Positions 11,101 to 58,157 of a DNA stretch of 64,000 nucleotides are shown one piece after another. The notes beneath the pieces are model-generated. The model saw nothing but the letters and a program-made list of their open reading frames with translations, was not told the origin of the DNA and did no database searches. The stretch comes from Botryllus schlosseri. Its lineage: Eukaryota. The DNA lies in NCBI GenBank assembly GCA_051294905.1, contig CM119371.1, forward strand, positions 38,814,001 through 38,878,000. The letters are read 5' to 3'. Made by a program: the position numbers and the translations under genes. Position 1 is the first letter of the stretch. Every line of letters begins with the position of its first letter.

Positions 11101-14100
11101 CAGGGGTTAAGGTTGGGTTAAAGTTAGTTTTGAGATGATAAATTCACATGCTCTGCACCGCCTGCCAGAGTGCCCCATCTCTACTGTTGTTTGTCGTAAT
11201 ATGGCATTCTGAATTGCGACACTCTAGCATACGGTAATTAGCATGCGACTTCGCGCTTCCATTGCTAATTAAATGTTTCGATTGATTAAGCAAAACCAGG
11301 CCTGAAACTACGTACTTTGTTTCTTACTAGGAAAGAGATACTTCGACTGTACTTGATGACACATTTACGACGTCAATTCTACTTCAGTAAAAGCGAAGGA
11401 TACGTTGACCCTCTCCGCCGAAACTTTGTCAAACCGGACAGACTAAGAAGGTTTGTAATGCACAACATATTGCGATTAACCGTCATGTACAGTCGAGCAG
11501 TGCTAATATGGTACACCCCTCCCAACACAGCCCTAGTTGCTAAGGACCAAACAAACCCCATATACATGAAGGGCTCAATTCTACTAACCGCATAGATCAC
11601 CGGACACCTCCAATGTAGCCGGTCGCTGCAGTGATATAGTATCGATGCTCCAGCCGTAAACTACATTTCTCCCCGCCCACAAGAATCCTGACCGACGATT
11701 CTTACGTCCGGCGTTGAAAATACGAGACGCGCTAGTTTGCAGCTTGACCTCGTCGTTGAAGAGGTTCCTGATTTTCAACGTGCAATTGGCCATCGACTGT
11801 ACTTGAGCTTTCGAGAGCACTTTCGACCAAACGTAAAAGTCCGTGAACTTTCCGACCATTCGTTTTGTTTCCGTTGAGAAAACGTTCCGCTTTTTTCGTT
11901 TACTTCGAAATCCGGTGCTAACTCGGATCGTGTGCTCCGAAATGGAGCTGGCGTTGATCGCCTGGTCTTCGTCGATGAGGTTGAACTCGCCACCGCCGAT
12001 GTAGTATCGACCGCCGCTCGCGAGAACGTGCCGTTTCTGATGTATGGGAAGATACAAATGAGAGAATGAGAGTGTTGTTGTTCGTTTTTCTTTATGCAGT
12101 TCAATAAATATACCAGAGATGATCAGTACCAAAATACTTGTTTTTGTACAGAATTAGGTATAATCTAGTTGTATTTCTAACCGATATTGGACAGTGACGA
12201 AGTAGGCTATTTCTACTTCGCAACTTGCAAAGCTTCCTCAATTGGTTTTCATTATAGACTACTACTTCCTTACAATTTTCACTTTTTTAGTATAAAAACA
12301 CTTGAATTACGTACTTTTCAAATCGCTACTTCTACTTACACCTGACTACCGACCATGACTACTCTTACTCAGGGGGAGCGGTTGTTTTGGACTTTCTCGT
12401 CGTCTACTAAACTGAACTATTAGGGATAAGTACTTTCTTGTTACAAGTTAGAAGTTTATAAGTTGAAAGTAGTTTCACTATAAGGTTGCAAAACGGTTAT
12501 GAGTCGAATTCACGTAACAACCTCTTGAACCAGCCCCTATATCAAGATAACTGAATATTTTCGTAGAATATTCTAGCTAGCTATGTGTAAGTAACGTAGC
12601 AACAATTCGTTACAGACCACCTCCGATTGACAGTGCGGTGGCGAGTTATAATTCGTAAACGCTAACATCCAAGAGAATTAACACTAAATGTAGAACTATG
12701 TGTTTTAATGCTACTTAGTGGTCCTGGCAATTCACGTGAAAGGTAAGCACGATAAAGATTTAGGCATTGCGTTCATGCCATTTATTGATGTAGTCGAGAA
12801 CCACAGGTATCGCAAGACTGGCTAATGGCTTTTCGCGAAACCGCTAAAACGTACTGGGTGTGGGGTTCGAACCCACGCGGACATTTGTCCATTGGAACTT
12901 AAGTCCAACGCCTTAACCACTCGGCCAACCCAGTTCCACGGCAGACTCCTGATATTTCGAATGCTGTTGCACCATATGAATCAGTGTAGAAGGTTTCTTT
13001 AGTCAAGTTGGCTTTATCTTAGAGACATTAATGTATATATACGATATTTAAATAGGGTGGACAATAGATAAGATATTCAGATTGATACGAAGTCGAATAT
13101 TTTAGGCTGATAGTCTTCAGGGGTAATCGTCAGCAACGGTAGGGTTAGGAAACAATTCAATTTTTCAGCCCGTAATAAGATGAGCTTATGCGATTTGGAG
13201 GCAACAGGTGATTAAAAAGCAACGTCGCTATGAACGCTTGGCTGCCACAAGCCAATTATCCCTGTGGTAACTTTTCTGTCACCTCCAGCTTGAAACTCGC
13301 AAGCACTGAAGGATCGATAGGCCGCGCTTTCGCGGTCCGTATTCATACTGAAAATCCGGATCAAGCGAGCTTTTGCCCTTTTGCTCCACGCGAGGTTTCC
13401 GTCCTCGCCGAGCTCGCATTAGGACACCTGCGTTACTCTTTGACAGATGTACCTCCTCAGTCAAACTCCCCGCTTGATATGCGGATCGCCCGCGGCTCGG
13501 AGGCCGCGGGCTTAAGACCAAAATCGTAGGCCGGCTTCGCGCCGGCTCGCTTCTGCCTCACTGAATGAGCGAAAAAATGACCAGAGTAGCGGAATGAATA
13601 CTAATATTATTTATTCAGTCAGCGAAAGGTGTCCAAGATCAGAATAAATTCAGAATCCGTTATGCGAATTGTAGAGTTTGAACCTACGCGGCGTATAGAT
13701 AGTTGATAGCGTCGCTTTGAATTCAATACGATATGTCTACGGTGAACCCATGAATCTAACACTTACTTTCATTTGCTGACCCCGATCGATCTGTACCCCG
13801 TCTTTGAATACTTTCCATAACCCGTACCTCGACGACCAAGTCGCACACACGTGATGCCATCTAACGTCATCCAGTCCAAGACTGATAGGGGCTGATTGTT
13901 TACCTTTGACCACAACATAAACATCTCCTGGGCTGCCACTGCCTTGTTTCGAAGTTCCTTTTGTGTTCAGCCCGATTAATCCAAACTCCACACGCTCCTT
14001 CTGATTGACGTAGGCGAAAACAGTGCCAGTTCCGTCTTGGTCTAGTGATTTAACCCATGCGCACACGGTGATGGCTCGCAGTCCGCTTTTATTGATATCG

Positions 14101-40997: not shown

Positions 40998-41070
40998 CGC
41001 CCGATAAGGGACTTGAACCCTTGACCGTTGGATTAAAAGTCCAACGCTCTACCGACTGAGCTAACCGGGC
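40998..41070 (-). tRNA. tRNA-Lys(UUU)
   Basis: GCCCGGTTAGCTCAGTCGGTAGAGCGTTGGACTTTTAATCCAACGGTCAAGGGTTCAAGTCCCTTATCGGGCG. 73 nt, TTTT downstream. Confidence 0.95.
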
Positions 41071-55155: not shown

Positions 55156-56759
55156 GTTGAGAGGCCTTTAATATCGCACCTCGCAATGGTATAGTTACAT
55201 TAGTAATTACAAATCTGCCCCCGAAAATCTACTTTATATTACTTTACGAATTTTTTTTTTTTGGGGGGGGGGGCGATCGCCCCGTTCGCCCTTCCAGGGC
55301 TACGCCAGTGCTTGGAGGTACAGAACTTCAATATACACATATATTTTTGTTCTAGTTTCTTGCGTCCGCCCCGAACGTTCTTCCGTTACCACCATGTGGC
55401 TAGTATTCGGGCTTGATACTTGCCGCTTGATGGAAACCATAATGAGCAATATAGTGAATCTAGATTGCTTTAGTCAGTGTATCGTTTCATATATTAAGAG
55501 ATGCCGACTTTACCTTAGAAGAAACGTGCCACTAATTTGGTCTTACACAGAATACTTATTATTTCTTTGACTCCCAACATAGTAATGAACAATGGATTGG
55601 CGATTGGGTGTGGAATATAATGTGTCGGTGCGGTGTCCGTTCCCTAAAAATCATGATGACTTGGAAGTTGGAATCAGTCTGAATATTAACAAATGAGGTG
55701 ATATAGAAGACAGAGTGGACACAATACATATATACAAATAAGCACTTGAACTACATGTCAAGGGGTGGATAATCCAAGTAGCATAATATCGAAAAACTGG
55801 AGAACAAAACCATTTATTCACACATATAAATTAACTGGGAATCATTTCTTTATTCGGCGATCTGTTGTACCAGTCATTCGTTACTTAACGATGTTGCAGC
55901 TCATCTCCCCCGGCCTATATTAAGGTTAACGTCAGGTATTACTATAAAGCAAGCATAATACCGCATACAACGTTCGCGCATCTTCGTCGGCACCGGTGAC
56001 CCAAGCACCTGAGTCAGTATGGGCCCGGGGGATATCATCTGGAGGGAGAACAATATATTATCCATGCAGTTGCACTGCGATCTTTGCAATGATCCTGAAT
56101 GTGGCAATCATTCGATGCGACTTTCAGCCAAACGGAAAATGCTGCAGACTATTGGCATGTAATTGAAATTCGAAGGAAATTTTTCATCGGCGAATTGGTT
56201 GTTGCTTGGTATCATGTAATTGGTGATACAAATGAATTGGATGATGCAGTCGAATTAATTGTAGATTGCAGTCAAATGAATCGTATATTGCATTCTAATT
56301 ATGAATTGCAGTCGAATTGATGTAAATGGTTTTTGCGCGGCAGTCAGAATCCTTCGATGCCGATCATAGACGAAGAAGCATGTCTAATTGGTTATGTGCG
56401 AACGATAATCGTTGTAATGCACATATATTTCCCGCGAGTTTAATATCAAGTCCGAGTTCAATTCAAGTGGTGATAGCTCGCACGTAGAACAGCTACAGCA
56501 AAATACAACTGCATGAAGATAACAGACACATAGTACAGCAACAGCAACATAAATCCGAATGAACATATTAACATAAAACTATAATAATAAGCTAAGTATA
56601 AGGGAGGCCATGAGATTTACAGTAAAGTATGCGACAACTTGAAGTACCAGCACTCGAAGATTCGCTTACGCTTTATTTAACAGTTGGAAAATGGAGCAGC
56701 CGATCCGAGAAGGCTTGATTAAAAAAGGATGCTAAAATACGAACGCAATTGAAGATTAC

Positions 56760-56931
56760 AATTAAATAGTATATTCATATTGAAATGAACCCGAATATTT
56801 TCGGCTGACACTCGTCAGGGGTAATCGTCAGCAACTAGTAGAGAATTGGAAAGAACATTGTATATCAACAATCGTATCACAAATATACTATTTAATCGTA
56901 TATTGAAGTTCTGTACCTCCAAGAAGCTCTT
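56760..56931 (-). mobile_element. Short hammerhead-containing retroposed repeat (copy D, best preserved)
   Basis: Flanked by the 14-bp direct repeat CAATTGAAGATTAC (56746-56759, 56932-56945). Homologous to 13073-13160, 14303-14406, 28022-28173 and 62240-62305. Confidence 0.75.
56789..56832 (-). ncRNA. Putative minimal type-I hammerhead ribozyme (intact core)
   Basis: Minus-strand RNA reads GCUGACGAUU-ACCC-CUGACGA-G-UGUCAGC-C-GAAA-AUAU-UC-GGGU. Features: core CUGANGA/GAAA/UH, stem I ACCC:GGGU, 1-bp stem II, palindromic AAUAUU stem III, loop II complementary to upstream GCUGAC(G). Confidence 0.75.
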
Positions 56932-58157
56932 CAATTGAAGATTACCGAAATCACTTGCCCAATCTCAGACACCTTCCATATCATATTCTGGTGTGTTATG
57001 ATAAATGAATCTCCGAATTCTTCTTTTCTGGTGTGATGTCTATAGTTTGTTGCATTGACGTTGGCTTATTTATTCTACATGCCAACGCAAATTGTGCAAT
57101 AAGTTACATGTTCTAGTTCTAGTATAATGTTTCACAGTATTGGACGTTAGCACGCAAATTACAGTCTGTGTCTTATACAGATTGAAATACTGGTGTCTAT
57201 AGCTTATGGTTTGTGTATTGCGAAATACGTGTAGTTTATTGTATCGAGGCCTTCGTGTTTTTGCAGTTCATTTCGTTTCTGAGATTTGCGGACTTCGAAT
57301 GACATGTCATCAGCAACAATTGATATTCGATTGACCTAGTATTTACAACAAGAATTGTGGCCAGCAAGCAATGCGTCATCAATTCACAAACATATGACAA
57401 ACTTTGAATCATAGCGTAGGCTACTCAATTCGATCGCTAGCATGTTATTTGTTGATTTCGATAAGATCCCCGTTATTCAAACAGTATATGTTTGAAATTT
57501 CGATGTAACGGTTTTCGTAATCGTTGATGTTATTAGGAGTCCTTGAGTTGGATAACAGCATCGTCACGAGGCTTGTTATCGCGCTCTTTACGCATAAAGG
57601 TTGCGTAACTCTAAAATATAACGTTGGTTACTCAGGGAGTATGATAAACATCGTGCTGTATATTTGAAATAATGTAATTGGCAATGTTGTATAGGCCTAC
57701 ACCGAGCGTAGCATCATAGACATTGTTATAGAAAAGCAAGTCTTAAATCGTGCATTGATGGGTATAAGGTGAAGTGGAATACACCAAATTAACTACTGAA
57801 ACAGGACATCTGCCCATCGTACTGATTTTCCGGAGCCATCAGTCTTTAACGTCCTGATCGCATTTATATAATTGTAATTTTCTGACGCACCACATCAAGA
57901 ATGGCGATTTGGTAATAAAATGTTACAAATCACGTAAATATGAAGTTACGAAAAAATCCAAATTTCTCCAATATTTAATCAGTGAGGGACACGACCTGAA
58001 AAAAGCATATCTACATAGCATGGACATTGCGAATCCAATATCTTCGCAGTCTAAATACAGGTAGTCTATGCTACACACATGCGTCATTGCGCAATGAGCA
58101 TAGCCAGAACAGAGATAGAGGCGCATACGTTCTCAAATAGATTTGAATTGTAGACGA

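Follow-up and report, generated by a model that had tools for sequence, protein, structure and literature searches.

A 64,000-nucleotide stretch of the Botryllus schlosseri genome (contig CM119371.1 of assembly GCA_051294905.1, positions 38,814,001 to 38,878,000; hereafter the window, whose own numbering is used below) carries on its minus strand, at 56832–56789, a sequence with the complete core of a hammerhead ribozyme and a local stem II of a single base pair. Taking all its parts together, we regard as probable an explanation in which this is a pseudoknotted hammerhead from the pseudo-long terminal repeat (pseudo-LTR) of an autonomous Penelope-like element (PLE), the window holding a truncated insertion of that element, and in which cleavage would occur upon dimerization. 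The sequence itself, the identity of the element, the anatomy of the insertion, the covariation of the pseudoknot helix and the copy numbers are all established by the analysis.

A predicted hammerhead with a displaced helix II strand

Read 5' to 3' on the minus strand, positions 56832–56826 are GCUGACG, followed by AUU, ACCC (56822–56819), CUGACGA (56818–56812), G (56811), UGUCAGC (56810–56804), C (56803), GAAA (56802–56799), AUAU, U (56794), C17 (56793) and GGGU (56792–56789). An earlier reading of the window from its letters alone (the original prediction) had given this motif, its coordinates and a cut between 56793 and 56792, all of which are exact on this strand; the predicted scissile bond 56793|56792 is hence correctly placed. 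The parts of the motif are as follows.

56827..56832, minus strand: displaced 5' strand of helix II, GCUGAC (the pseudoknot strand), predicted to pair with 56804–56809
56819..56822, minus strand: 5' strand of stem I, ACCC, predicted to pair with 56789–56792
56811..56818, minus strand: core C3–A9 (CUGACGA) and G10.1, by sequence reading
56804..56810, minus strand: loop II, 7 nt, UGUCAGC; its base 1 would be a 1-nt linker and its last six bases the 3' strand of helix II
56799..56803, minus strand: C11.1 and G12-A13-A14-A15.1, by sequence reading
56793..56799, minus strand: palindrome A15.1-AUAU-U16.1 and C17; stem III would form between two copies, with the predicted cut after 56793
56789..56792, minus strand: 3' strand of stem I, GGGU, by sequence reading and covariation

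The type-I hammerhead core (C3 U4 G5 A6 N7 G8 A9, G12 A13 A14, A15.1–U16.1 and a non-G17) is complete between 56818 and 56793. Stem III, AAUAUU, lacks a loop, and an intramolecular stem III is thus not possible, only an intermolecular 6-bp helix; the earlier description of a minimal type-I hammerhead with a palindromic, PLE-like stem III that cannot form in a monomer accordingly stands. Only 9 nt (G, the 7-nt loop and C) lie between A9 and G12, which makes a local hairpin helix II impossible. The motif lies within the pseudo-LTR, 14 nt upstream of the ATG of the element's open reading frame (ORF) and 36 nt before the usual start of its cDNA. In the window the pattern CTGANGAGN7CGAAA has one match, and at least one match turned up in 24 of 100 shuffles, so that within the window alone its occurrence is not beyond chance.

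The upstream strand, in GCUGACGA (56812–56832, minus strand), repeats the core CUGACGA. For this reason loop II could instead pair with the CUGAC of the core; the choice between core–loop and upstream–loop pairing might be a switch between an inactive and an active state, or a trace of an origin by duplication. Taking the first CUGACGA (56831–56825) as the core was considered and rejected: by eye, its flanks provide neither a stem I nor a G10.1–C11.1 pair.

The fold that we propose, with the three-dimensional geometry, dimerization, cleavage and role that we infer from it, may be described thus. A type-I minimal hammerhead with a stem I of 4–5 bp and a full core would have its local stem II reduced to the G10.1–C11.1 pair, and six of the seven loop-II bases would pair with a 6-mer lying 3–5 nt upstream of stem I. 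Since the six loop bases lead straight into C11.1, they would sit where the 3' strand of a normal helix II is found; the upstream 6-mer, which has the polarity of the missing 5' strand, would bring helix II to 7 bp, interrupted after G10.1, and the one variable loop base would join G10.1 to the far end of that helix, bridging its groove. A one-nucleotide bridge across the deep groove of a 6–7-bp stem is classical in H-type pseudoknots. A linker of 3–5 nt joining the distal ends of helix II and stem I would, in turn, hold both helices side by side.

Because stem III is a 6-nt palindrome without a loop (AAUAUU or AAGCUU), the active site would form only by the pairing of two copies. The retention of these palindromes agrees with the model by which PLE and newt hammerheads have been proposed to act as dimers (Cervera & De la Pena 2014, PMC4209133; review PMC6765202). 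Transcripts with two pseudo-LTR hammerheads, or two separate RNAs, would dimerize and be cut after C17 or U17, and the product would be a 5'-OH RNA beginning upstream of the AUG, by 14 nt in the window's family and by 10–21 nt in others. Such a cut would trim upstream read-through and might help translation, a role demonstrated for hammerheads by start codons in RNA viruses (PMC13725137). The cDNA ends 36 or 68 nt past the cut site, which implies that inserted copies derive from RNA uncut at its 3' hammerhead; this agrees with Frangieh et al. 2024 (PMC11167929), in whose experiments insertion in vitro did not need cleavage.

Thousands of copies and covariation of the pseudoknot helix

The pattern CTGANGAG-N7-CGAAA-N4-TH was searched across the genome in two halves, each with a reversed-pattern control. 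With a loop-II first base other than T there were 1,339 matches against 3 in the control, and with T there were 6,858 against 2; the total of 8,197 against 5 for the whole genome is far beyond chance. The matches form several diverged PLE families (here W, X, Y and Z) sharing one layout: 5' to 3', the upstream 6-mer, G plus 2–4 nt, the first strand of a stem I of 4–5 bp, CUGANGA, G, a 7-nt loop, C, GAAA, a 4-nt palindromic centre, U, a non-G base and the stem I partner, with AAUAUGAA following 10–21 nt later. The core bases are kept in all four families, but the search pattern itself demanded the core.

For covariation we hand-picked 60 matches for loop diversity, decayed copies included, with 101 nt around each; the resulting alignment (A1; 61 sequences, 57 distinct rows) is hence a non-random sample, in which pairs were counted with the upstream 6-mer set against loop positions 2–7. 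Overall, 87.1% of its cells were paired, compared with 75.1% upon shuffling (none of 500 shuffles reached as high) and 19.5–40.1% when the partners were slid. For the pseudoknot helix (columns 11–16 with 36–41) the figure was 85.1%, with both sides changing in all six pairs, and for stem I it was 82.3%, with both sides changing in four of five. Six versions of the pseudoknot are wholly Watson–Crick (GCUGAC/GUCAGC, ACUAAC/GUUAGU, ACUGGC/GCCAGU, UCUGGC/GCCAGA, ACUGGU/ACCAGU and ACUGAC/GUCAGU) and further ones contain G–U pairs; all six pairs are present in 27 of the 61 rows and five in another 18. Stem I appears as ACCC/GGGU in the window and as CGCUA/UAGCG, CACUG/CAGUG, CACUC/GAGUG or UCCC/GGGA in other families, and the stem III centre is GC in 33 rows and UA in 21, giving the palindromes AAGCUU or AAUAUU. 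In family Y (core CUGAAGA, loop GCCAGU), reading of the alignments indicates that the upstream pairing is kept and the rival core–loop pairing is lost. The putative pseudoknot between loop II and the upstream strand, as anticipated in the original prediction, is thus supported by covariation in this alignment.

Older diverged copies (L012, L034 and L038) are decayed and yielded no usable covariation. Inspection of families W–Z by eye revealed no conserved hairpin around the upstream 6-mer; a RAGATH-1-like hairpin at this place was considered and not adopted, W and Z having weak A–U pairings and X and Y none. In the window's family, loci L093–L095 (G000:C1:8426839-8426939 and two others) have the upstream strand and stem I replaced and a loop TGTCGAC, and sub-lineages of this type account for 8 of the first 100 matches in one of the sets examined. 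Such broken-pseudoknot sub-lineages could be either defective masters that still multiplied or segmental duplications.

The parent element and its truncated insertion in the window

The window's own 495-Mb assembly was searched with the 172-bp unit that the original prediction had delimited, with 59 matches listed and 40 of 503 candidates scored. Nearly all listed matches are restricted to query positions 63–190 (window 56883–56756; block B), mostly at 99–100% identity. At the inspected loci, block B extends upstream into common sequence and terminates in ...TATTTAATTGTAA, beyond which the flanks are unrelated. The 3' end ...TTGTAA recurs in more than 20 loci, with an alternative 3' end 32 nt further on, and the copies are truncated at their 5' ends to various lengths from 128 nt upward (292, 479, 512, 629, 652 and at least 1,380 nt among them). 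An inverted copy often stands head to head with an element copy, and on several contigs tandem copies lie 2,692 bp apart. In the array at L051, block B is followed by the reverse complement of block A (window 56932–56882), and an intact frame of 859 aa, with its first ATG in block B, starts inside that block and spans the unit. The encoded protein matches the Pfam reverse transcriptase (RT) domain RVT_1 (E=7.8e-9; 36 bits against a cut-off of 29.6), and its C-terminal 200 aa match GIY-YIG (PF01541) weakly, at E=0.028 and 15.2 bits, below the cut-off of 22.6. Its nearest Atlas clusters are animal RT proteins, in one of which 27% of the members have GIY-YIG. The motif lies beside a Penelope-like ORF for an RT with a candidate GIY-YIG domain, where the original prediction had proposed to look for it.

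Hallmarks of PLEs include partial tandems, inverted 5'-truncated neighbors, strong 5' truncation and a 30–40-bp tail at one end (PMC8557442), the tail resulting from two adjacent internal start sites of reverse transcription (Frangieh et al. 2024, PMC11167929). The published tail has its counterpart here in the 32 nt that separate the two alternative 3' ends, and the element displays pseudo-LTR tandems, inverted arms, the tail, 5' truncation and variable target duplications of about 7–14 bp (in the window, L002, L003, L009 and L022). By its anatomy and coding capacity, we identify the parent as an autonomous 2,692-bp PLE with a single ORF for RT and a GIY-YIG-like domain, young and very abundant. 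The retroelement itself is an ordinary PLE, though a very abundant and recently active one.

The insertion in the window, as annotated from these comparisons, comprises the following.

56746..56759, unstranded: target-site duplication copy by the forward arm; 56756–56759 may be the element's terminal GTAA
56756..56883, minus strand: forward arm, 128 nt (block B), the last 128 nt of the PLE unit; part of its 3' untranslated region and pseudo-LTR
56756..56778, minus strand: remnant of the PLE ORF start, with ATG at 56778–56776 and 7 codons; 14 nt past the predicted cut
56882..56932, plus strand: inverted arm, 51 nt, made of the 32-nt PLE tail and 19 nt of the unit's 3' end
56932..56945, unstranded: target-site duplication copy by the inverted arm, an exact 14-nt direct repeat (D3)

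Both the hammerhead and the opening 7 codons of the ORF lie in the forward arm, which is 100% identical to L051 4752–4878 and to most of 30 loci; the 859-aa frame of L051 passes through the ATG at 56778–56776. The inverted arm, in the opposite orientation, is a 98% match to L051 4910–4860 reversed, and makes with 56757–56775 a 19-nt inverted repeat (I1); the direct repeat begins on the outermost base of this arm, 56932. That repeat, CAATTGAAGATTAC, is exact over 14 bp at 56746–56759 and 56932–56945. The claim of a retroelement insertion with a target-site duplication is therefore borne out, and so is the perfection of the 14-bp repeat; its length as a duplication is to be relaxed to 10–14 bp, as the GTAA on the minus strand at 56759–56756 is also the usual 3' end of the element (...TTGTAA). 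Judged by this standard PLE anatomy, window 56746–56945 is one dead-on-arrival, heavily 5'-truncated PLE insertion, and the window copy of the motif, a lone monomer, is most likely inert.

In 8 of 30 distinct loci inspected (window 56883, L002, L003, L006, L009, L022, L026 and L028) the forward arm starts within the same stretch of about 8 nt, 128–135 nt from the 3' end. Such a recurrent start of the arm could reflect a transcription start in the pseudo-LTR or a strong stop of the reverse transcriptase.

Comparison with known hammerheads

The minimal hammerhead of PLEs is defined by its location in the pseudo-LTR, a helix I of 4–5 bp, a palindromic 15.2–16.2 without a loop, a local hairpin helix II of 7–8 bp and an unpaired base between positions 9 and 10.1 (PMC4209133). 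With metazoan PLE hammerheads the present motif shares the position in the pseudo-LTR near the ORF start, the type-I topology, a stem I of 4–5 bp, the conserved G10.1–C11.1 pair, the loopless palindromic stem III implying action as a dimer, and the thousands of mostly solitary truncated copies per genome. It departs from them in helix II, which is published as a local hairpin of 7–8 bp in Schistosoma PLEs (PMC4209133) and of 3–9 bp in about 40 rows of File S2 of Craig et al. 2021 (PMC8557442), whereas the local stem II is 1 bp here. Further, PLE hammerheads are called devoid of tertiary contacts in reviews (PMC6155905, PMC7761336), in contrast to the 6 bp that would here be formed with a strand upstream of stem I.

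The closest architecture that we found is that of RAGATH-1 (Rfam RF03152), which is likewise of type I; its stem II, a single base pair, closes a 7-nt loop matched by a complementary segment 5' of stem I. The RAGATH-1 hammerhead is reportedly due to Weinberg et al. 2015. In the RF03152 structure line this loop is drawn as <_______>, and by eye CUugG pairs with CcaAG in both the model and the phage examples. Phage members of RF03152 score 67–86 bits; in them a 5' hairpin, with a loop complementary to loop II, is joined through a 7-nt linker to stem I, and stem III is a hairpin of 9 bp. Families X and Y of the PLE motif align with part of the model, positions 25–77, at 18–23 bits, the best score in the genome being 27.6 bits. 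The differences are several: RAGATH-1 is monomeric, with its 9-bp stem III hairpin, and its partner segment lies in the loop of a 4-bp hairpin 7 nt from stem I, whereas the PLE motif has no stem III hairpin, no conserved hairpin enclosing the partner and a linker of 3–5 nt; its pairing of about 5 bp is placed mid-loop and its hosts are phages and bacteria, as against 6 bp running up to C11.1 in an animal retrotransposon.

In the hammerhead described by Perreault et al. 2011 (PMC3088659), too, stem II has a single base pair, on which a 6-bp pseudoknot is stacked so as to keep it alongside stem I; this ribozyme is fast at 0.5 mM Mg2+ and was examined with disruptive and compensatory mutants. That hammerhead is of type II, with a normal stem III and a 3' tail after stem II that pairs with loop I, whereas the PLE motif is of type I and its loop II would pair with a 5' tail. 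The non-circularly permuted hammerheads (type SGC and others; PMC10085705) share a linker of about 3 nt between stems I and II that is thought to hold the stems together, but in them entire conserved blocks are permuted, whereas here the order of blocks is still that of type I and the displacement is confined to the 5' strand of helix II. Lastly, the PLE Poseidon of Anolis carolinensis (PMC11167929) likewise has two adjacent internal RT start sites, begins its ORF at a hammerhead and shows no RNA-seq ends where the latter would be cut; it differs in a stem II and loop II that are described as canonical and in an ORF that starts inside the hammerhead, the AUG here lying 14 nt past the cut.

As a separate observation, two Naiad consensus 3' ends in the supplement of PMC8557442 have a 9–12-nt segment upstream of CUGAnGA that is complementary to a segment after CUGAnGAGUCC, for example GAGCCUCCC and GGGAGGCUC (by eye), and a stem II enclosing a long loop could arise from GUCC...GGAC-GAAA. 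Naiads regarded as hammerhead-less may accordingly carry a related arrangement with an upstream strand.

Evidence on cleavage and alternative explanations

Site-specific self-cleavage of the motif is predicted from its sequence, and a number of observations weigh against this prediction or the fold behind it. The nested minimum-energy fold of 56775–56850 selects the competing CUGAC/GUCAG hairpin and does not exceed shuffled sequences in stability (z = -0.31); the folding program handles neither pseudoknots nor dimers, which renders this single-strand fold uninformative. The check with Rfam hammerhead models that the original prediction had called for came out negative for the window copy, both in a scan of the whole window at gathering scores and in one of 56600–57100 at E<=10, and near the motif the Rfam scans gave chance-level matches only (sR55, 11.6 bits). 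Related copies reach 16.6–22.8 bits with RF00163 (cut-off 34) and 18.2–27.6 bits with RF03152 (cut-off 56.3); genome-wide, none of the 59 and 73 candidates scored with these respective models passed the cut-offs, which does not imply that canonical hammerheads are absent. In addition to the hand-picked sampling of the alignment, many copies of the window's family have uncompensated loop changes (L096–L101), and there are multi-copy sub-lineages with a two-mismatch pseudoknot (L100/L101) or with the upstream strand deleted (L093–L095). Stem III of the window's family is, moreover, all A–U.

The RNA data, namely raw reads of one bulk and one single-cell run and two contig sets, were examined over the tandem junction (L051 4741–4926) and point the same way. 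Depth over block B in the bulk run is about 100–215, on both strands, and there is no pile-up of read starts or ends at the predicted cut site, across which depth is about 190–215, nor at any other place in the region; the libraries are of ordinary kind. Since 96% of the bulk-run reads run into unlike flanks (67% in the single-cell run), they come from embedded truncated copies; over the 5' part of the ORF the bulk run has no depth at all and the single-cell run no more than 2. The lack of read ends at the site indicates that lone copies are not efficiently cut, a result that does not address dimers. As a side observation, RNA reads over the element's 3' block (L051 4741–4926) are about equal on both strands and run mostly into unrelated flanks, from which it follows that truncated copies are widely embedded in host transcripts in both orientations.

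These data lend some appeal to the view that the hammerhead-like fold is not, or is no longer, self-cleaving and serves instead as a structured RNA signal at the junction of the pseudo-LTR and the ORF, which we hold to be unlikely without dismissing it. Such a signal could be recognized by the element's RT near the starts of reverse transcription or act as a cap-independent translation element by the AUG, in keeping with the short distances from the motif downstream to the AUG (14 nt) and to the usual cDNA start (36 nt). The absence of read ends at the predicted site in both bulk and single-cell RNA would be as expected, and there are precedents: minimal PLE hammerheads are weakly active, poor cleavers in vitro (Cervera 2014, PMC4209133), hammerheads of PLEs are dispensable for insertion in vitro, where catalytic mutants insert normally, and leave no RNA-seq ends (Frangieh 2024, PMC11167929), and ribozyme folds by start codons promote translation in RNA viruses and some retrotransposons (PMC13725137). 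Yet, the translation role in RNA viruses required cleavage (PMC13725137), and across diverged families the motif retains its core bases, the non-G17 and a palindromic stem III, none of which a protein-binding hairpin would need.

Two further alternatives concern not the fold but the unit that carries it. The original prediction took the 172-bp unit for a distinct non-autonomous, ribozyme-bearing family copied as a unit, akin to retrozymes or short interspersed elements; a retrozyme is a short non-coding unit that is copied with constant boundaries, usually in tandem, and has a hammerhead in every unit. A target-site duplication is indeed present, the same order of arms recurs over most of the query at L002 (95%) and apparently in an 85% match on contig 3, and a preprint (10.64898/2026.07.22.740005) derives animal retrozymes from PLE pseudo-LTRs; nevertheless, we consider this very improbable. 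Both parts of the query are covered in only 3 of the 59 listed matches, most genomic matches sharing only the 128-nt 3' part and extending into the autonomous 2.7-kb element, of which every part of the unit is a piece. The window copy is not in tandem, and the window has one copy of the motif. L002 differs from the window in its inner junction (…AGTATAT|TTGTGATACG… in the window), its 3' end and its duplication, which argues for independent origins as truncated insertions and against copying from a short master. The remaining possibility, a small DNA transposon (miniature inverted-repeat transposable element) bounded by 19-nt inverted repeats and resembling a hammerhead by chance, would draw on I1 (56757–56775 and 56882–56900, 95% complementary) and the flanking direct repeats. 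However, I1 is not terminal, and it comes from two opposed arms of a retroelement whose other copies are truncated 5' at many points; chance, for its part, sits ill with 8,197 matches against 5 and with the covariation. We give it next to no credence, and took it as ruled out by the variable 5' truncation, the unit structure at L051 and the covariation. The preferred explanation thus remains a pseudoknotted hammerhead in the pseudo-LTR of an autonomous PLE.

Novelty and significance

The literature searched yielded no pseudoknot with a 1-bp stem II for PLE hammerheads, a result to be read with the proviso that Lunse et al. 2017 and Weinberg et al. 2015 could describe it. We put the chance that the architecture is truly undescribed for PLEs at about even. 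The suggestion in the original prediction of a possibly undescribed architecture is to be confined accordingly to the ribozyme within PLEs, for the layout of RAGATH-1 (RF03152), a near-equivalent, means that the combination of a 1-bp stem II with an upstream pseudoknot was already known. What differs here is that there is no stem III hairpin, that no conserved hairpin encloses the partner strand, that the pairing has a 6-bp register and that the host is an animal retrotransposon.

We tentatively advance, as a proposal to which we give slightly less than an even chance, that animal PLEs hold an unrecognized kind of hammerhead, in which helix II draws its 5' strand from ahead of stem I, giving a RAGATH-1-like pseudoknot, and stem III forms only in dimers. 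This would supply the tie between stems I and II that PLE hammerheads are said to lack, would have escaped all descriptors and Rfam models, and may be the 'missing' or 'core-only' hammerhead of those PLE lineages in which canonical motifs are reported to be absent. The significance lies in the description of PLE hammerheads as minimal, weakly active and without tertiary contacts, their role being unsettled. If helix II is itself the tie between stems I and II, the motif offers a compact test system with a natural compensatory series, by which one could address: (i) cutting at physiological Mg2+; (ii) the need for dimerization; (iii) a role in processing as against translation, 10–21 nt before the AUG. 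Further, standard hammerhead searches missed about 8,200 copies, and surveys that report PLE clades or genomes without hammerheads may therefore undercount them. The same structural solution would be present both in ribozymes of phages and bacteria and in an animal retroelement.

Other features of the window

Two tandem 46-nt units, 74% alike, lie at 56472–56563, about 200 bp from the insertion. On the minus strand at 13203–13657 there is a 455-nt match to eukaryotic large-subunit ribosomal RNA (286 bits; model positions 2409–2988, with internal deletions), which is isolated and far from any complete ribosomal DNA unit in the window and could be a ribosomal DNA fragment or pseudogene. Three transfer RNA genes, all on the minus strand, are found at 12852–12934, 15730–15812 and 40998–41070; the first two are near-identical, 83 nt long with a long variable arm, and flank the ribosomal RNA fragment.

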